Source of the DNA: an uncultured Gammaproteobacteria bacterium
Lineage (GTDB): Bacteria > Patescibacteriota > Microgenomatia > Levybacterales > GWA1-39-11
Length of the DNA: 42,658 nucleotides
Direction: 5' to 3'
NCBI GenBank assembly: GCA_964596415.1
Contig: CAZQSX010000005.1
Coordinates: 1-42,658 of the forward strand
The notes beneath the pieces are model-generated. The model worked only from the letters and a program-made list of their open reading frames with translations, ran no database searches and was not told where the DNA came from. Positions 2,647-24,823 of the stretch are shown one piece after another. Made by a program: the position numbers and the translations under genes. Each line of letters opens with the position of its first letter. Positions within the stretch are counted from its first letter, which is position 1.

Positions 2647-4290
2647 ATGAAGATCTTTAAAATATTAAACAAAGAAAGACCAGACACAACAAAAAGAATA
2701 TTTAATATCCTTCTTGAAAATAGGGGAATTAAAACAAAAAAAGAGGTGGATGAATTTTTAGATCCTCAAATTGAAAAAGTAACTGTTAAAAATGTCGGGA
2801 TTGATGTTTCAGAAATAAAAAAAGCGCTCGAATTAATAAAAAAAACTATTCAAGAAAATAAAGCGATAATAATTTTTGGAGATTATGACGTAGATGGAAT
2901 AACTGGCACGGCAATTCTTTGGGAGACAATTTTTTCATTTTATAAAAACGTACATCCTTATATACCTCATAGAATGGATGAGGGATACGGTCTTTCAATA
3001 AAAGGCATAAAGAATCTGCAAGCAATTGTTAAAGATATTGGATTAATTATTACGGTGGATAATGGAATTGTAGCCGGCAAAGCAGTAGAGTATGCTAAGT
3101 CGAATGGGATACAAGTGGTAATTACAGATCATCATACCCCTGGGGATATACTTCCTGATGCGGATGCAATTATTCACACAACTAGTCTTTGTGGTGCAGG
3201 AGTGGGCTATTTATTTTCAACAACTATTCGATCAGCGTTTCAGCTCTCAGAAGATGTTTCACGTATAGAACTTGTTGCTTTGGCAACTGTTGCAGATTTG
3301 GTTCCCTTAAATGCCTATAATCGAACATTATTAAAATTTGGTCTTGAGAAACTTCGAAATACAAATCGTGTGGGACTTCTTGCACTGTTTGAGGAAGCTA
3401 GGATCAATAAATTAGACATAGATACGTATCACATTGGGCATATGATTGCTCCCCGGCTTAACGCAAGCGGTAGGATATCTCACGCAATGGACGGTTTACG
3501 ACTAATTTGCACTACAAACAAAGTTAGGGCAAAAAAACTTGCAATGATTCTTGAAGGGATTAATAAAGAAAGGCAGGCTCTTACATTTTCATCAGCAGAA
3601 GACGCAAAACAACACGTAAAAGATATAGGAAATATTGTTATTGCAGAAAGCTCTGAATATGAGCAAGGGGTCGTGGGACTTATTGCATCAAGGTTGGTTG
3701 AGGAGTTTTATAGACCATCACTTGCGATTTCAATTGGGCAAGAAATCTCAAAAGGATCTGCTAGGTCTATACCAGGAGTAAATATAATTGAGTTGATCCG
3801 GTCCTGTCCCGATTATTTAATAGAAGCAGGTGGTCATCCTATGGCTGCAGGATTTAGTATGAAAACAATAAATCTTGATTCTTTTAAAAAAGCAATTGTA
3901 AAAGCTTCAGAAAAAATAGAAAAAAAATTGTTTGTGAAAGAGTTAAAAATTGATCTTGAAATTGAATTTGGGCAGATAACATTAGAGTTATATGATTTGG
4001 TAAAAAAACTTGCACCATTTGGAATGGGAAATCCAGTTCCTGTTTTTATGACTAAAAAAGTGCAGGTATTAAGTCTAAAAAAGGTTGGTAAGCAAGAAGA
4101 TCACTTGCAAATGTTTCTTGGGAAAGATGGAGTTGAGTTTAAAGGAATTCTTTTTAATCATATAAAAAAACAAACACTTTCAGTAGGAGATATAATTGAT
4201 GTGATTTATACTATTGAACAAAACATTTGGAAAGATAAAAAAACAATCGAATTAAAAGTAAAGGATTTTAAAAATAATTTACTTTCCTGA
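2647..4290 (+). CDS. recJ: single-stranded-DNA-specific exonuclease RecJ
   Basis: 547 aa. DHH family motifs DYDVDGITG, VITDHHTP, GGHPMAAG. Confidence 0.9.
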   Translation: MKIFKILNKERPDTTKRIFNILLENRGIKTKKEVDEFLDPQIEKVTVKNVGIDVSEIKKALELIKKTIQENKAIIIFGDYDVDGITGTAILWETIFSFYKNVHPYIPHRMDEGYGLSIKGIKNLQAIVKDIGLIITVDNGIVAGKAVEYAKSNGIQVVITDHHTPGDILPDADAIIHTTSLCGAGVGYLFSTTIRSAFQLSEDVSRIELVALATVADLVPLNAYNRTLLKFGLEKLRNTNRVGLLALFEEARINKLDIDTYHIGHMIAPRLNASGRISHAMDGLRLICTTNKVRAKKLAMILEGINKERQALTFSSAEDAKQHVKDIGNIVIAESSEYEQGVVGLIASRLVEEFYRPSLAISIGQEISKGSARSIPGVNIIELIRSCPDYLIEAGGHPMAAGFSMKTINLDSFKKAIVKASEKIEKKLFVKELKIDLEIEFGQITLELYDLVKKLAPFGMGNPVPVFMTKKVQVLSLKKVGKQEDHLQMFLGKDGVEFKGILFNHIKKQTLSVGDIIDVIYTIEQNIWKDKKTIELKVKDFKNNLLS

Positions 4291-13855: not shown

Positions 13856-13922
13856 AACGGGCGGTGCTCGTCCCGCCAAGTCGGGACTGCGCGCCTAAAA
13901 CTGATCCAGATTAGGGGTTTTG

Positions 13923-13993
13923 CTGGGAGTCAGGGATTTGAACCCCAATAAACAGGTCCAGAACCTGTTGTCCTACCATTAGACGAACTCCCA
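13923..13993 (-). tRNA. tRNA-Gln (anticodon CUG), no encoded CCA
   Basis: Folded by hand: TGGGAGT TC GTC TAATGGTAG GAC A ACAGG TTCTGGA CCTGT TTAT TGGGG TTCAAAT CCCTG ACTCCCA G. All stems pair, U1-A72 and G73. Confidence 0.85.
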
Positions 13994-14042
13994 GCAAAAC
14001 CACTAAATTATCTTGTTGTCCTACTTTTGAGCTTGCGAAAAA

Positions 14043-14130
14043 GCAAGCTCGGCTTACCATGAGACGACACAGCATCGTTTGTTGTAATTAGTCTCATGGC
14101 AAGCTCGGCTTACCATGAGACGACACAGCA
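14043..14130. repeat. two perfect 32-nt direct repeats (14043-14074 and 14099-14130), 56-nt period
   Basis: GCAAGCTCGGCTTACCATGAGACGACACAGCA occurs twice. On the minus strand each copy starts TGCTGTG-TC-GTC-TCATGGTA, which resembles a tRNA 5' acceptor strand plus D arm. Confidence 0.9.
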
Positions 14131-15052: not shown

Positions 15053-15658
15053 TCATGCTGGGATAGCAATTTCTGCTGCAGTTTTCCAGAAAAAAAACGT
15101 TCTCAGTTTTGCCGGGTCTTTCATAATATGAAGAATAGGATTTGTATTTTCTTGTGCAACTTTTAATGTCTCTTTCCAAAGCTCCCTGAGTCTCATACTA
15201 GTTTCAGTAAGTGTTTCAGGAGGTGCCATCAATCCATTTCTGGTAAACCTAAAATCCAAATAATTCCCATCAGTATCCTGAAGTGTAACGGTTGCATATT
15301 TATGAATTGCACCCATGGTAATAAGTGAAAAACGCAGTGCCTCTAATTCTTCGTCATCTGTTACGGTAGGTCCACCATCCACTGCCTGTGCAATTCTAAG
15401 ATCTCCAGGTGTTGCAAGACCAAGCCTGTCTACCTCACCCGGGTTATTAGCTAGCCCAGTTCTCGCGTTATGGATAAATGCTAAGCTATTCCCTAATATT
15501 CTGCTTGTTACTTCAGGGCTGCTTGGTCTTCCCTGAAAATAGTTGGTTAATACCTGGGAAGTTGATTGAGCGATTCCATACACAGCTAAATCAGGATTAG
15601 AGTATGTTATTTCTGGTTGAAGACCGCTTGGGAGCGGATGATATTCTGGGTGTGCCAT
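15053..15658 (-). CDS. hypothetical protein (201 aa), visibly more GC-rich than its surroundings
   Basis: ORF 15053..15682 (TTG). ATG 15658 is preferred because a consensus promoter lies 11 nt upstream. No family recognised. Confidence 0.6.
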   Translation of the reverse strand: MAHPEYHPLPSGLQPEITYSNPDLAVYGIAQSTSQVLTNYFQGRPSSPEVTSRILGNSLAFIHNARTGLANNPGEVDRLGLATPGDLRIAQAVDGGPTVTDDEELEALRFSLITMGAIHKYATVTLQDTDGNYLDFRFTRNGLMAPPETLTETSMRLRELWKETLKVAQENTNPILHIMKDPAKLRTFFFWKTAAEIAIPA

Positions 15659-15669
15659 ATGATGTTTAG

Positions 15670-15698
15670 ATTCTAAAATCAATCAAAACTATTGTCAA
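15670..15698 (-). promoter_or_regulatory. sigma70-like promoter TTGACA-17-TAGAAT for the 15053..15658 gene
   Basis: On the minus strand, TTGACA is at 15698-15693, then a 17-nt spacer, then TAGAAT at 15675-15670. Confidence 0.65.
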
Positions 15699-15718
15699 TA
15701 CTCTATTTAAAATAGAAT

Positions 15719-15746
15719 TTGCAAATTATTTTTGGAGTATTATAAT
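15719..15746 (+). promoter_or_regulatory. sigma70-like promoter TTGCAA-16-TATAAT for the 15753..16082 gene
   Basis: TTGCAA at 15719-15724, TATAAT at 15741-15746, ATG at 15753 (6-nt gap). Confidence 0.65.
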
Positions 15747-15752
15747 TTCCCT

Positions 15753-16082
15753 ATGGCGATACGCGTAGAACTATTTGTTCCTGAAACAAAAGACTGGTGT
15801 GAGGTAGAAATGGTTCGTGAAAACAGGTTATATAAAATGAGTCATTACCCACCTGTTTTAAAAGGTGAACATCCAGATTATCTGGTAGAATTTAGAGCTC
15901 TTGTTGAGGACGGGGCAAATAAGATTAAAAGATATGAGCGGTTAGATCCTCGGATTTCTGGACCGGTAAATGTTAGAACTTGTGAAGAAAAAGTATTGCA
16001 TGCTGAAAATAGACCATACTTTGCCCTTATCAGAAGTGAAAGATACGGAAGAAGAAGGTTGTATAAATTTTCAGCGGCATAA
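15753..16082 (+). CDS. hypothetical protein (109 aa)
   Basis: ORF 15732..16082 (TTG). ATG 15753 is preferred on promoter geometry. No family recognised. Confidence 0.55.
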   Translation: MAIRVELFVPETKDWCEVEMVRENRLYKMSHYPPVLKGEHPDYLVEFRALVEDGANKIKRYERLDPRISGPVNVRTCEEKVLHAENRPYFALIRSERYGRRRLYKFSAA

Positions 16083-16135
16083 CCCGGTCTTAAAACCTTC
16101 GCAATCGAGTATAATAAGGAGTAAAATACCAACAT

Positions 16136-16816
16136 ATGGATAAAAAACTTTATAAACTATCACCTTCCGACTTTGGGTACTTATGGGTTGAGTGTAAGCA
16201 TTGCTATTACCAAAAAGTAAAAAACGGAATTTATGCTCCCGGAATTTTTCCTTCTATGTTTGGCAGAATTAACAAACTCTTGCAGGATTCTATCATGGGG
16301 AAAAACCTCAATGAGATTCACCCCAGTCTTCCATCTGGCATTATAGAGATTCAGGAAGGGTTTTTAAAATCAATCCCAGTTCCTGGTGCTACCTCTTGTT
16401 TTATCCAGGGAAGATTTGATATTTTGACTAAATTAGATGATGGATCTTATACCATCATAGATTTTAAAATAACATCTCCAGATGATGATAGAATTCAAAA
16501 ATATGCTTCACAGCTGCACGCATATAAATTTGCATTAGAAAATCCACATTCCGGCGAACCCGTTAAAATTTCAAAAATGGGAATCGTAAGTGTTAACCCA
16601 GAAGAGATGAAGCTTGTGAATGGAAAAATTGAATTTACCGCTGTTCCCAGATTTCATGAGGTTGTAGAGGATATGGATAGTTTTTTTGCGCTTATTAAAG
16701 ATGTGGAAAATGTGCTCCTTGGTGAGCTGCCCTCTCCAGTTGAAGCGTGTGGATTATGTAAGTACAGATCTTATTTTAGTACTACTGTACCAAAAATTGA
16801 TGATATACCTTTTTAA
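16136..16816 (+). CDS. PD-(D/E)XK nuclease, Cas4/RecB-like with Cys pairs at both ends
   Basis: 226 aa. GRFD, IIDFK ((D/E)xK) and QLHAYKFAL (QxxxY), with an N-terminal CKHC and a C-terminal CGLC. Confidence 0.6.
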   Translation: MDKKLYKLSPSDFGYLWVECKHCYYQKVKNGIYAPGIFPSMFGRINKLLQDSIMGKNLNEIHPSLPSGIIEIQEGFLKSIPVPGATSCFIQGRFDILTKLDDGSYTIIDFKITSPDDDRIQKYASQLHAYKFALENPHSGEPVKISKMGIVSVNPEEMKLVNGKIEFTAVPRFHEVVEDMDSFFALIKDVENVLLGELPSPVEACGLCKYRSYFSTTVPKIDDIPF

Positions 16817-16822
16817 AGCTAA

Positions 16823-17260
16823 TTATCGTACGTAGAGATAGATATTATTCTTCATTTTTTTATATTTCCAATTCGGAAATTTGTAATAGTTTGTGAGTAC
16901 TTTTATTTTTGGCTTGAGTTCAGTGAGTAGTTTTATTTCAAGCAAATCCATAATATCTGGCATAGGATAGATACAGACAATATCAAAGCTGTTTAAGTTT
17001 ACATTCCAAAAATTTTTCTTTTGAATAGTAATATTATTTTCAAGAGATAAGCTATCTATTAACTTTTCTGATTTTTCTATGAACCCATCATCCAGTTCAA
17101 ATCCGGTGACTTGTGCTCCTTTTTGCCCAAACGCAATAGAAATTCTTCCGTCTCCTGATCCCAGATCAGCAACTCGATCATTTTTATTTACTTGGGAGAG
17201 TTCAATCATAGTTGAAACTTTATATCTTGAGGTTTCAAAGTAGGGGATACGCGTAATCAT
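16823..17260 (-). CDS. small class I SAM-dependent methyltransferase
   Basis: 145 aa with motif I VADLGSGDGRISIAF. Its ATG shares one base with the topoisomerase stop (TAATG at 17262-17258). Confidence 0.7.
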   Translation of the reverse strand: MITRIPYFETSRYKVSTMIELSQVNKNDRVADLGSGDGRISIAFGQKGAQVTGFELDDGFIEKSEKLIDSLSLENNITIQKKNFWNVNLNSFDIVCIYPMPDIMDLLEIKLLTELKPKIKVLTNYYKFPNWKYKKMKNNIYLYVR

Positions 17261-18315
17261 TATGTTTTGGTAAGATTCATCATGTGCTTTAAAAGAAACA
17301 AAACTTTATTTTCATAAGCACTAAGACCCTTCACATTTTTATGAAGTCTTTTCTTTATTTTACTACGCACATTTGAAAGTACTAATCCTTTTGTATACCC
17401 TTCTATAATATATGGATGAATGTAGTATTTTCTGCATGTATCAGGCTTATTTCTTAAGTGAGAGGCGACTTTTATGACTGTTTCAGTAACTGTTTTTTTA
17501 ACTTTTTCTTCATCAGTTTCAATATTGTTTTTATCAAGGATTGTAGCTGCAAGAAGCGTTCCGCCCCAGGTTCTAAAATCCTTAGCAGTGACCTCGCTTC
17601 CTGTTATTTCTTGGAGGTATATATTTACGTCTTGAGAAGAGATCGTTTGAATTTGTTTTTCTTCATCATAATATCTAAATAAATCTTGTCCAGGAATCTC
17701 TCTACATCTTCTTACAATATTTGCCACTTTCTTATTTCTAATGGAAACTGAATGAACTATTCCGCTTTTTCCGACAAACTGAAACATGATTCTGTATTTT
17801 TTGCCTATTTTTGCATGTCTATTCTTAAGCGTTGTAAGTCCGTAGGATTTATTATCCTGGGCATATTCTTCATTTCCAATCCTAATCAATGTGTTTTCCA
17901 AAAGCCAAACAACCGCAGCGATAACTTTTTGACGCGGCATGCCAGATGCTTTTAGGTGCGTTTTTGTAGAGGTTCTGATTTTTGGTAGATGAGATGCAAA
18001 TTCTATGATGTGACTGAATTTTTCTTCAGATGTGATTTTATTCCATAACGCATGATATCTGTATTGTTTTCTTTTGCGACTGTCAAATCCTGTTGCTTGC
18101 ATATGACCATTTGCATTTGGATTGATCCAAACATTGGTGTATGCCGGTGGAATTGCAAGTTTATTAATTCTGTTAATAATTGCCGTATCAATAATTTTTT
18201 TACCATTCGTATCAAAGTATTGAAATGATTTTCCTATTCTTTTCCTTGTGTAGCCAGGCTTATCATCCGTTGAGTATCTTAGTTTTACAGCTTCTAACAA
18301 TTCAATTGCACTCAT
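17260..18315 (-). CDS. DNA topoisomerase IB (poxvirus-like bacterial type)
   Basis: RIGNEEYAQDNKSYGLTTLKNRH, FVGKSG, AKDFRTWGGT and CRKYYIHP (catalytic Tyr). Start taken at ATG 18315 (MSAIELLEAVKLRYSTDDKPGY). The longer ORF to 18432 would overlap the divergent DUF2207 gene. Confidence 0.88.
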   Translation of the reverse strand: MSAIELLEAVKLRYSTDDKPGYTRKRIGKSFQYFDTNGKKIIDTAIINRINKLAIPPAYTNVWINPNANGHMQATGFDSRKRKQYRYHALWNKITSEEKFSHIIEFASHLPKIRTSTKTHLKASGMPRQKVIAAVVWLLENTLIRIGNEEYAQDNKSYGLTTLKNRHAKIGKKYRIMFQFVGKSGIVHSVSIRNKKVANIVRRCREIPGQDLFRYYDEEKQIQTISSQDVNIYLQEITGSEVTAKDFRTWGGTLLAATILDKNNIETDEEKVKKTVTETVIKVASHLRNKPDTCRKYYIHPYIIEGYTKGLVLSNVRSKIKKRLHKNVKGLSAYENKVLFLLKHMMNLTKT

Positions 18316-18358
18316 ATTTCTACTATGACATATTCTTTGTGCGTAGTACAATAAGAAT

Positions 18359-20107
18359 ATGAGGTTTTTATTTTTAGTAACAATATCACTTTTTGCATTT
18401 TTTTTTACACCAAAAGTTTTGGCGCAAGACACTGGGTGGATAATTAATTCTTATGAATCACAGATGCATGTTTTAGAAAGTGGTTCGGTTGAGGTAGAGG
18501 AGCACATAGCAGTAGACTACAACACATTGCAAAAGCATGGAATTTTTAAAGATATTCCTTATGTGTATGATTTGAATGGCGAGAAATATTATACAACGGT
18601 TCAAGTGGATGAGGTAATTCGTGATGGAGAAGATGAAAATTACACTTCATATAAAAGTGGAAATAATATTCAGGTAAAGATAGGGGATCCTGACAAGACA
18701 ATTTCTGGTAAACATAATTACTCGATCAAATATATTGTTCAAGGAGTTATTTTACCATATGCTCAATTCGATGAATTTTATTGGAATGTAACAGGCGAAT
18801 GGCCTGTTCCTATAGAGAATGTGCATGCTTTCGTAAATCTTCCGAAGGATTCAATTCTTCAGACTTCTTGCTATGTAGGTTATTCAGGATCAACAGAAAC
18901 ATGTAAATCGGACATATCTTCAAAAAGCGCTTTTTTCTCAACAACACAATTAGAGCCCAATGAGCAAATGACTGTGGCGGTGGGATTTGAGAAAGGAACA
19001 GTTCCCATTATTGTAATACCCAAACCTAAAACGGTTCTCGAGCAAATAATGGAACCATTTAATATTGGATTATTTTTATTCCCGATTTTAGGTGGATTTG
19101 CATTTATCTTGCATCACTGGTATAGAAATGGACGGGATCTTTGGAGCAGAGGCAAGCATCTATTTGATCCTCATGCAAAAGAGGAAGTTAAGCCAATTGG
19201 ATCTCATGATCAGATTGTGGTGGAGTATACGCCCCCTGATAAGCTCAGACCAGCAGAGCTTGGGGTTTTAATGGATGAACAGGCAGACACACTGGATGTT
19301 ACAGCAACTATTATTGACCTTGCTGCGCGTGGATACTTTACCATAGTTGAGATTCCAAAAAAGTGGATATTTGGAAATGTAGATTATCAGTTGAATAAGA
19401 AAAAGGATGCAGATTCTCAGCTTCTTTCTTACGAAAAAACACTTATGAATAAAATATTTGGTGATTTAAAAATGATTAAAACATCAGAGCTAAAAAATAA
19501 ATTTTATACAGATCTTTCAAGGGTAAAAAAAGAACTGTACTCTCACGTTGTAGAAAACAAACTATTTCCCTCTGATCCTGAGAAAGTGAGAGGAAAGTAT
19601 TTACTTATTGGTATAGTTCTTCTGATAGGAAGTCTTTTGGGAATTATTTTCATCCAGATAATTTCCTTGCAAATGTTTTTGGCAGGGAATATTATTTTTT
19701 CTTTGTTTGTTGTTATTTTTTCAAGGAGTATGCCAAGACGAACTGCTTATGGACAGGAGCTGTACAGAAGGGCAAAAGGATACTATGAATTTATATCTCA
19801 TGTTGAAAAATATAGACAGCAGTTTTTTGAACGAAAAAATATGCTAAACGAAGTACTTCCTTACGCAATAGTATTTGGATTGACGGGAAAATTTGCACAA
19901 GCCTTAAAGGATATGGGGATAAAACCTGAACAACCATCGTGGTATGTGGGACATACCGCTTTTAGCTTGACAAGTTTTGAAAAAAATGTGAATACGTTCT
20001 CCTCTTCTTTATCTTCTGCTATTTCATCTGCCCCAAGATCGAGCGGTTCATCTGGTGGTGGATTTTCAGGTGGGGGTTTTGGTGGTGGGGGTGGTGGAAG
20101 CTGGTAG
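18359..20107 (+). CDS. DUF2207-like membrane protein
   Basis: 582 aa. Signal peptide, large extracytoplasmic domain, TM helices, Gly-rich tail GGGFSGGGFGGGGGGSW. TACAAT (18347-18352) lies 6 nt before the ATG. Confidence 0.7.
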   Translation: MRFLFLVTISLFAFFFTPKVLAQDTGWIINSYESQMHVLESGSVEVEEHIAVDYNTLQKHGIFKDIPYVYDLNGEKYYTTVQVDEVIRDGEDENYTSYKSGNNIQVKIGDPDKTISGKHNYSIKYIVQGVILPYAQFDEFYWNVTGEWPVPIENVHAFVNLPKDSILQTSCYVGYSGSTETCKSDISSKSAFFSTTQLEPNEQMTVAVGFEKGTVPIIVIPKPKTVLEQIMEPFNIGLFLFPILGGFAFILHHWYRNGRDLWSRGKHLFDPHAKEEVKPIGSHDQIVVEYTPPDKLRPAELGVLMDEQADTLDVTATIIDLAARGYFTIVEIPKKWIFGNVDYQLNKKKDADSQLLSYEKTLMNKIFGDLKMIKTSELKNKFYTDLSRVKKELYSHVVENKLFPSDPEKVRGKYLLIGIVLLIGSLLGIIFIQIISLQMFLAGNIIFSLFVVIFSRSMPRRTAYGQELYRRAKGYYEFISHVEKYRQQFFERKNMLNEVLPYAIVFGLTGKFAQALKDMGIKPEQPSWYVGHTAFSLTSFEKNVNTFSSSLSSAISSAPRSSGSSGGGFSGGGFGGGGGGSW

Positions 20108-21255: not shown

Positions 21256-22107
21256 ATGAAAATTCCTGGTAGAGTAACGATTCTTTCAATTGTATTACTT
21301 CTTTTTGCGTTCACTTTTCTAAAACCGTTTGATAAGGCTTCAGACATTCAAAAAGAAGATGGTAATGTTCAGGGAGTTTCAACTGAAAATATTCAGGCAG
21401 ATCAGGTAAAAGAAGTTATTGACGGAGATACATTTACTTTAGGAAATGGTCAAAAAGTGAGACTTATTGGGATAAATACCCCTGAGCGTGGACAGCCCTA
21501 TTATGATGAAGCAAAATCTCACCTAGAATCAATCCTTTCATCAAGAATCGTTAAGCTTATGACAGATGCAAAGGTACAAGATGAATACGGAAGAATTCTC
21601 GCCTATGCGTATTCCGATTCTGACTTAGATATAAATTTAGATATGATAAAAAAAGGACTTGCTGTAGCTGAAACTATTTCGCCAAATGTTTCACGTTCGG
21701 ATATTTTTTCAAAAGCCCAAATTGAAGCAAGAAATAACTGTTTAGGTATATGGGAGGGTTTATGTGGTGATGAAGGGCTTTGTGTTCAAATTTCAGAAAT
21801 TCACGCAAAGTCTAATGATCATACAAAAAATGGTGAATGGATTGAGCTATCTAACACATGCGCATCAGATATCAATCTAAATGGATATTTACTCAAAGAT
21901 AATAGTGCTTCAAATTCATACACTTTTAAAAGTAGAATACTAGGTTCTAAAAAATCACTGAGATTATTCACTGGATGCGGAGTAGATAATGAAGACTTTT
22001 CATATTGGACTTGTCCTGAGCAGCAGAATTTTATCTGGAATGATACGGGCGATAGGGCATATCTTTACAACTCAAATAGTACGCTTGTTTCTGAACTTGG
22101 ATACTGA
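21256..22107 (+). CDS. secreted staphylococcal-nuclease-like nuclease fused to a lamin-tail domain
   Basis: 283 aa with an N-terminal signal anchor. DGDTFTL...VRLIGINTPE is the SNase core. The C-terminal NGEWIELSN...LNGYLLKD is LTD-like. Confidence 0.75.
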   Translation: MKIPGRVTILSIVLLLFAFTFLKPFDKASDIQKEDGNVQGVSTENIQADQVKEVIDGDTFTLGNGQKVRLIGINTPERGQPYYDEAKSHLESILSSRIVKLMTDAKVQDEYGRILAYAYSDSDLDINLDMIKKGLAVAETISPNVSRSDIFSKAQIEARNNCLGIWEGLCGDEGLCVQISEIHAKSNDHTKNGEWIELSNTCASDINLNGYLLKDNSASNSYTFKSRILGSKKSLRLFTGCGVDNEDFSYWTCPEQQNFIWNDTGDRAYLYNSNSTLVSELGY

Positions 22108-24719: not shown

Positions 24720-24791
24720 GGCCCCATCGTCCAGTGGTTAGGACACCAGATTCTCATTCTGGGAACCGGGATTCGACTTCCCGTGGGGTCA
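24720..24791 (+). tRNA. tRNA-Glu (anticodon CUC), no encoded CCA
   Basis: Folded by hand: GGCCCCA TC GTCC AGTGGTTA GGAC A CCAGA TTCTCAT TCTGG GAAC CGGGA TTCGACT TCCCG TGGGGTC A. All four stems pair. Confidence 0.9.
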
Positions 24792-24823
24792 CTATCTTTC
24801 GCTAAAGCTACAGATAGCAAGCT

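Follow-up and report, generated by a model that had tools for sequence, protein, structure and literature searches.

A topoisomerase IB, a small methyltransferase and a Cas4-like nuclease packed side by side in a Levybacteria genome look like ordinary neighbours of known gene families

Layout and authenticity of the locus

We analyzed a 42,658-nt stretch of DNA (contig CAZQSX010000005.1 of assembly GCA_964596415.1; the entire stretch is hereafter designated the window) from a bacterium of the Levybacteria (Microgenomates, candidate phyla radiation [CPR]), in which genes for a type IB DNA topoisomerase (TopIB), a small S-adenosylmethionine (SAM)-dependent methyltransferase and a PD-(D/E)XK nuclease lie directly side by side. 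An initial annotation of the sequence had proposed that the three genes form a DNA-manipulation module, which could act in defence, in mobile-element maintenance or in repair. According to our analysis, they look like ordinary neighbours belonging to known gene families and not like a new defence system. The following features are located at this site:

16136..16816, plus strand: nuclease, 226 aa (list of open reading frames [ORFs])
16799..16813, plus strand: codons for the C-terminal residues DDIPF of the nuclease (sequence comparison with the genome's SSB [single-stranded DNA-binding protein])
16817..16822: 6-nt spacer that separates the stop codons of the convergent nuclease and methyltransferase genes
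16823..17260, minus strand: methyltransferase, 145 aa (ORF list)
17258..17262, minus strand: TAATG overlap of stop and start codon (read directly from the sequence)
17260..18315, minus strand: TopIB, 351 aa from the ATG at 18315; the open frame extends to a GTG at 18432

All three genes are intact in the ORF list of the window. The plus strand reads CATTA at positions 17258-17262 and thus TAATG on the minus strand, where one base is common to the TopIB stop codon TAA (17262-17260) and the methyltransferase start codon ATG (17260-17258). This overlap and the 6-nt convergent gap had already been reported in the initial annotation; both were confirmed by reading the sequence, and the same layout is present in independent assemblies. 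The ATG at 18315 is the likely start of TopIB, because alignments to the TopIB proteins of relatives begin at residues 1-11 of the 351-aa form and because the form extended to the GTG would overlap a divergent DUF2207 gene starting at 18359.

A contig of 24,789 nt from another run (X3) covers positions 15700-18500 with 19 differences, and a contig of 821 nt from run X1 bridges both junctions (16548-17368) with zero differences. Since both contigs carry the same layout, the arrangement is not an assembly artefact. The stretch is present, as judged by at least half of the sampled words, in 17 runs from 10 studies, which cover wastewater, freshwater/aquatic, sludge and biofilm samples. Metatranscriptome run X18 yielded three short contigs that are 92-96% alike and cover parts of the stretch; these have no bearing on transcription or co-transcription.

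The tight packing of the trio is ordinary for this genome of 0.98 Mb (977,201 bases in 38 contigs, 92.75% complete). Counted from crude ORF calls, 132 of the 669 pairs of same-strand neighbours overlap, 65 of them by 4 nt and 9 by 1 nt, and the gap is at most 10 nt in 87 of the 149 convergent pairs of the whole genome. The 6-nt convergent spacer leaves no room for a terminator. A scan for promoters and terminators returned 17 promoter-like sites as compared to 13.0 +- 3.7 in shuffled sequences, and one terminator-like site as compared to 1.6.

Family assignment of the three enzymes

The gene at 17260..18315 is predicted from its sequence to encode a bacterial, poxvirus-like type IB DNA topoisomerase. 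The protein matched the Pfam families Topoisom_I (131.8 bits, cut-off 23.7) and Top1B_N_bact (78.7 bits, cut-off 27), and its residues 29-342 aligned to TopIB of D. radiodurans (2f4q) with an E-value of 1.4e-56. Residues R145, K183, R248, N289 and Y298, which we take to be the catalytic pentad (Arg-Lys-Arg-Asn/His-Tyr) of type IB topoisomerases, show no variation among 19 sequences and match 2f4q at the aligned positions. A type IA topoisomerase (TopA) is also encoded in this genome (G000), and therefore TopIB would be an accessory enzyme.

Poxvirus-type TopIB had been described in the initial annotation as occurring only sporadically in bacteria, and indeed it was detected in only 7 of 400 genomes of the phylum and in 19 of 400 genomes of the class. 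Among 60 relatives, 24 carry TopIB, intact in 23 cases and as a remnant in one genome of the same genus (G008), in which two fragments with in-frame stops are left (G008:C2:59400-59873). As G008 retains the remnant only and TopA is encoded in G000, TopIB is dispensable; in the lineage of G008 it is undergoing loss. At two other loci (L076 and L078, in genomes G036 and G032 of one genus), TopIB is adjoined by a protein of ~160-200 aa composed of repeated topoisomerase DNA-binding C4 zinc finger ribbons (Zn_ribbon_Top1). This repeat protein is also encoded one to two genes from TopIB in the genus of the window (L070-L072), and it is absent from the window itself.

The methyltransferase carries the motif I sequence ADLGSGDGRI and matched over nearly its full length the archaeal lysine methyltransferase aKMT (5fa8, E 6.7e-16; 5jwj, E 1.1e-14) and a Salinibacter protein (5bxy, E 2e-13). 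The best NCBIfam model, NF041081 for archaeal protein-lysine N-methyltransferase, scored 61.3 bits, which is below the equivalog cut-off of 200; by this measure the protein is a relative of the NF041081 enzymes and not an equivalog. A structural model built from 20 sequences (predicted local distance difference test score [pLDDT] 90.8) superimposed on aKMT 5fad with template modelling (TM) scores of 0.91 (TMq) and 0.83 (TMt) and on chains A and B of 5bxy with TMq values of 0.89-0.90, while the next family reached at most 0.75. More distant sequence relatives include the eukaryotic lysine methyltransferases of the adenine nucleotide translocase. No DNA-methyltransferase family of Pfam matched at E <=0.01; only generic SAM-binding families and RrnaAD were found. 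The modelled structure thus identifies a minimal class I SAM-dependent enzyme of the aKMT fold, which most likely targets protein lysines and not DNA. The suggestion made at the outset that an enzyme of 145 aa may act on protein or RNA rather than on DNA fits this fold. In the source PMC8927968, aKMT is described as a non-SET protein-lysine methyltransferase, which acts on the chromatin proteins Cren7 and Sul7d and on the majority of the proteins that are methylated in S. islandicus.

Genes of the methyltransferase family are present in 56 of the 60 relatives, mostly with one to three matches per genome. Close orthologues (at least 49% identity) were detected in 15 of the 60, and 7 of these 15 genomes lack an intact TopIB, which argues that the methyltransferase is independent of TopIB. 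The gene neighbours of the orthologues vary. A second aKMT-like methyltransferase with 31% identity is encoded in the same genome (G000:C1:43670-44089). Many proteins of ~330-375 aa from other bacteria (P0237-P0330) also showed a strong match to the aKMT-like profile and could, by their length, hold two tandem domains. Minimal methyltransferases of the aKMT type thus occur in almost all members of this order, and their bacterial substrates may deserve the attention of specialists.

The nuclease matched Pfam family PDDEXK_1 with 34.5 bits (cut-off 22). The Cas4 model TIGR00372 gave 23.5 bits, below its cut-off of 65, and the Cas4 models of PADLOC gave at most 30 bits. Paired cysteines are present in the motifs CKHC (residues 20-23) and CGLC (residues 205-208), and an alignment of 35 family members shows no variation at C20, C23, D95, D109, K111, Q126, Y130, C205 and C208, of which D95, D109-x-K111 and Q126...Y130 make up the catalytic motifs. 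The structural model (pLDDT 83.5) yielded TM scores of ~0.5 with the nuclease domain of AdnA, Cas4 SSO0001, type I-C Cas4, Exo5, MGME1 and ACE1. Cas1 (PF01867) was not found in the genome, which is 92.75% complete. On these grounds of sequence and model, the protein is classified as a stand-alone PD-(D/E)XK enzyme of the RecB/Cas4 fold and not as Cas4 proper. A CxxC motif near both ends (2+2) is shared by 75 of 78 family members, and the four cysteines represent a putative metal or Fe-S site; Cas4 and AddB possess a 1+3 arrangement of cysteines (binding an Fe-S cluster in Cas4), which the nuclease of the window does not show. A second CxxC...CxxC nuclease with 26% identity and without a DIPF tail is encoded elsewhere in the genome (G000:C7:8473-9114). 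Orthologues of this nuclease lie near TopIB in another genus, as does a methyltransferase from a further clade. Taken together, profile, fold and residue evidence bears out the three family calls made initially, i.e. poxvirus-type TopIB, small SAM-dependent methyltransferase and Cas4-like PD-(D/E)XK nuclease with paired cysteines.

The last five residues of the nuclease, DDIPF, are identical to those of the SSB of the same genome (156 aa, contig C11:22320-22790). Among 1620 ATG-started ORFs of at least 60 aa in the six frames of the whole genome, only these two end with D[IL]PF, and within the nuclease family an [IL]PF ending is present in 53 of 78 members. The C-terminal hexapeptide DDDIPF of SSB is reported as a conserved docking motif for SSB partners in PMC5872125, and PMC4846377 names RecJ as one partner docking at the SSB C-terminus; a RecJ gene is present in the window. 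The sequence of the tail thus suggests that the nuclease docks into the interaction hub of the SSB C-terminus (SSB-Ct) and points to a role in replication or repair rather than in defence. A narrow literature search turned up no nuclease with an SSB-like tip of its own, which does not show that none exists. As a widespread CPR nuclease family with an SSB C-terminal docking tip, these proteins may be worth the attention of specialists.

Distribution of the three genes and genomic setting

Co-occurrence of the trio in other genomes had been named in the initial annotation as a check of the proposed module. The tight trio was found in none of the 60 relatives, at none of 80 nuclease-centred loci and at none of 80 methyltransferase-centred metagenome loci. 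When the flanks of TopIB (+-1.5 kb) were inspected in the 24 relatives that carry it, G053 was the only one with the methyltransferase next to TopIB (upstream, same strand), and G034 the only one with an adjoining nuclease (convergent with TopIB). The nuclease was detected in 9 of the 60 relatives; eight matches are at the level of orthologues, and the ninth, a weak match with 25% sequence identity, was taken for a paralogue-level relative. All three genes occur together in 4 of the 60 relatives, all of which belong to the genus of the window. In three of them (G002, G003 and G005), methyltransferase and nuclease adjoin each other divergently, the matched parts being separated by ~70-75 nt, and TopIB is 5.6-6.5 kb away; in the fourth (G001), the genes are on short separate contigs. 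Within the genus, the three genes are spread over ~8 kb in another order and orientation. Outside the order, neither partner was found near TopIB at any of the 19 loci inspected (0/7 of the phylum and 0/12 of the class).

The nuclease-centred set comprised 80 loci of species-representative genomes with flanks of +-6 kb. The methyltransferase was near the nuclease at 5 of them, all from the genus of the window, TopIB was near at 3, and both together at none. The commonest neighbour family of the nuclease reached only 9 of the 80 loci. The methyltransferase-centred set consisted of 80 metagenome loci, 43 of which span at least 5 kb, and was retrieved with alignment A2; a metagenome scan with the single methyltransferase protein had found no relative. 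These loci contained neither TopIB (0/80) nor the nuclease type of the window (0/80), and the paralogous nuclease type was present at 2 of 80. Fusion proteins provided no link either: a TopIB or PDDEXK domain was present in 0 of the best 120 of 6912 longer proteins carrying the methyltransferase domain.

The initial annotation had itself stated that its proposal would be refuted by a lack of co-conservation, or by a methyltransferase that groups with protein-lysine or rRNA enzymes together with a nuclease that groups with housekeeping RecB-like repair proteins of unrelated neighbourhoods. Because the trio is not co-conserved, the methyltransferase groups with the protein-lysine methyltransferases and the neighbourhoods of the nuclease are unrelated and variable (no neighbour family at more than 9 of the 80 loci), a three-gene module for defence, mobile-element maintenance or repair is not supported.

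The window represents a housekeeping region, which encodes aminoacyl-tRNA synthetases, RecJ (2647-4290), the CCA-adding enzyme, Lon and glycosyltransferases, and the source records of close protein relatives carry the names Candidatus Levybacteria, Daviesbacteria and Patescibacteria. A scan of the window with Rfam detected two tRNAs only, which enclose the segment with the three genes:

13922-13993: tRNA-Gln
24720-24792: tRNA-Glu

No integrase, transposase or phage genes were found in the window. Flanking direct or inverted repeats around the segment were limited to short, chance-like matches, and its G+C content is not distinctive. When 35 other ORFs of the window were scanned with PADLOC, only generic matches were obtained (a staphylococcal nuclease plus lamin-tail domain [LTD] protein and the Lon domain of BrxL). 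In the same system, residues 7-104 of the methyltransferase matched mad2 of MADS with 53 bits, corresponding to profile positions 272-370 of 492. MADS is described as an eight-gene operon (PMC13662399), and no other mad gene was present among the 5 + 35 window ORFs scanned. Membership in MADS was therefore rejected, as the partial mad2 match is limited to residues 7-104 including the SAM-binding motif and is not accompanied by any other component.

Further features of the window were recorded in passing. Positions 21256-22107 encode a secreted protein with staphylococcal-nuclease and lamin-tail domains, which corresponds to the PADLOC candidate family SNc+LTD (61 bits). Upstream of the nuclease, two ORFs without family match are located at 15732-16082 (116 aa) and 15053-15682 (209 aa); the 209-aa ORF recurs beside TopIB in G012 and near TopIB in G001, and the 116-aa ORF has no homologue in the compared TopIB loci of relatives. 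Beside tRNA-Gln there are two exact direct repeats of 32 nt (14043-14074 and 14099-14130), 56 nt apart from start to start, and this region contains partly complementary arms (14045-14065 / 14091-14111) without an Rfam match. The tRNA-Gln gene itself is bracketed by a 20-nt inverted repeat with 95% complementarity (13911-13930 / 13987-14006), which lengthens the acceptor stem by ~11 pairs on each side.

Explanations for the arrangement and comparison with known systems

We consider it probable that the locus harbors three independent enzymes of known families, which became packed together in one species with a gene-dense genome and do not constitute a three-gene system. A local rearrangement in one Levybacteria species may have made the genes neighbours, and their tight packing would follow from the extremely gene-dense organization of the 0.98-Mb genome. 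TopIB is predicted to provide accessory DNA relaxation by nicking and resealing one strand through its tyrosine. Most likely, the methyltransferase uses SAM to methylate protein lysines rather than DNA; its co-transcription with TopIB is probable in this species, and translational coupling to TopIB may be added to it. The nuclease is a predicted metal-dependent DNA nuclease, which probably takes part in replication-associated repair and may dock where SSB-Ct docks.

Several observations made within the order weigh against this explanation. They derive from 27 TopIB loci including the window, inspected over +-9.5 kb where the contig allows, with the genus tallied for 25 loci (10 genera). A gene of the methyltransferase family is located near TopIB at 9 of the 27 loci and in 5 of the 10 genera, which makes this family the TopIB neighbour common to the most genera. 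The expected chance rate is ~4% per genome, a rough estimate of our own (two copies, 19-kb window, 1 Mb) and not the output of a tool. The TopIB-proximal methyltransferases are spread over five or more clades of the methyltransferase tree, and in two genomes, G000 and G053, the methyltransferase directly adjoins TopIB on the same strand, in opposite order. The TAATG overlap is moreover compatible with real co-expression. The orthologous nuclease is near TopIB at 6 of the 27 loci. A paralogous nuclease (21-24% identity, no DIPF tail), to which the second copy on contig C7 is orthologous, is near TopIB at 3 of 27. TopIB was also found in 10 of 73 further nuclease-bearing genomes, giving 16 genomes that carry both genes. 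In 8 of them (G000, G002, G003, G005, G034, G819, G827 and G874) the two lie within 11 kb, and in G000, G034, G819 and G827 they are arranged tail-to-tail. In 4 of the 16 (G816, G824, G828 and G830) the two genes are on separate contigs, and TopIB is absent from at least ~8 kb of sequence flanking the nuclease, the separation exceeding 19 kb in G816 and 139 kb in G830. In the remaining 4 the contigs are too short to judge the distance, so that the 8 close cases stand among 12 judgeable genomes. Within the order, the closeness of the three genes thus exceeds chance at a scale of ~10 kb. Order and orientation of the genes differ between lineages. Counted by genome, unrelated families turn up next to TopIB about as often (TspO, cupin, LTD, transglycosylase-like, DUF4112, an RNase T/ExoX-like exonuclease, secreted proteins), and we take the closeness to reflect an ancestral neighbourhood that has been shuffled, or else a clustering of accessory genes.

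The same observations would also agree with a loose functional guild around TopIB, which is kept in one neighbourhood by selection without a need for adjacency, and which we regard as unlikely. Here, the aKMT-like enzyme would methylate lysines of TopIB or of nucleoid proteins and thereby tune DNA topology, while the nuclease would clear trapped TopIB-DNA complexes or fork lesions; that the known aKMT substrates include chromatin proteins would suit such a role. However, neither partner was near TopIB at the 19 loci outside the order, TopIB is missing from the methyltransferase-centred loci and from the longer proteins inspected, almost half of the genomes with a close methyltransferase orthologue manage without intact TopIB, nuclease and TopIB are on different contigs in four genomes, and unrelated genes accompany TopIB about as often. 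An explicit version for the Levybacteria, in which lysine methylation tunes relaxation and the SSB-docked nuclease clears trapped TopIB-DNA complexes at forks, appears more doubtful still. If true, such a guild would be to bacteria what chromatin methylation is to archaea and Top1-adduct repair to eukaryotes.

It is very improbable that a mobile element carries the segment as cargo and that TopIB serves its maintenance in the manner of a recombinase. The patchy distribution of TopIB, the position between two tRNA genes and the local gene order, which differs between close relatives, could be read in this way, but the genes, repeats and base composition expected of an element were not found in the window, and the flanking genes (for a secreted protein of 198 aa and a protein of 209 aa) accompany TopIB in other genera too. 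We attach the least credence, bordering on none, to a restriction-modification-like or other anti-phage module, in which the methyltransferase would label the cell's own DNA and the nuclease would cut DNA lacking the label, TopIB being accessory. Nuclease and methyltransferase are adjacent here and neighbours in five genomes of the same genus, and the partial mad2 match as well as the weak matches of the nuclease to the Cas4 models of PADLOC might be taken to hint in this direction. However, a 145-aa enzyme of the aKMT fold has no room for a DNA-target domain and matches no family of DNA methyltransferases, the mad2 match stands alone and generic PADLOC matches occur elsewhere in the window, the pair is conserved in a single genus only, housekeeping genes surround the locus in a genome without detectable Cas1, and the nuclease tail points to the SSB interactome. 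The explanation that three independent enzymes were packed together by chance of rearrangement and gene density is therefore preferred, and the main result is a negative one: finding nuclease, methyltransferase and topoisomerase genes tightly clustered in a CPR genome does not amount to evidence for a defence system, since genomes as compact as this show one-base overlaps and six-base convergent gaps by default.

Each of the three proteins resembles a known system on its own. TopIB of D. radiodurans (2f4q / 3m4a) possesses the same two Pfam domains and the same five aligned catalytic residues; the TopIB of the window differs in that it comes from a CPR bacterium and in that its gene overlaps a downstream methyltransferase gene, which was not seen at the other TopIB loci examined. 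The methyltransferase shares its minimal fold and its SAM-binding motif with aKMT of Sulfolobus islandicus (5fa8, 5fad, 5jwj) and with 5bxy of Salinibacter ruber; in comparison to these, it is bacterial and 28-30% identical. As 5bxy was annotated as an RNA methyltransferase by its depositors, an RNA target of the enzyme is conceivable as well. Its likeness to mad2 of MADS is confined to the region of the SAM-binding motif. The nuclease has the RecB-type fold and the D...D-x-K and Q...Y motifs in common with Cas4 (SSO0001, 4ic1; type I-C, 8d3l), AdnA/AddB, Exo5 and MGME1, and the cysteines at both ends of the domain are likewise shared with these nuclease domains. From Cas4, it is set apart by a score below the Cas4 cut-off, by a genome without detected Cas1 and by its SSB-like DDIPF tail.

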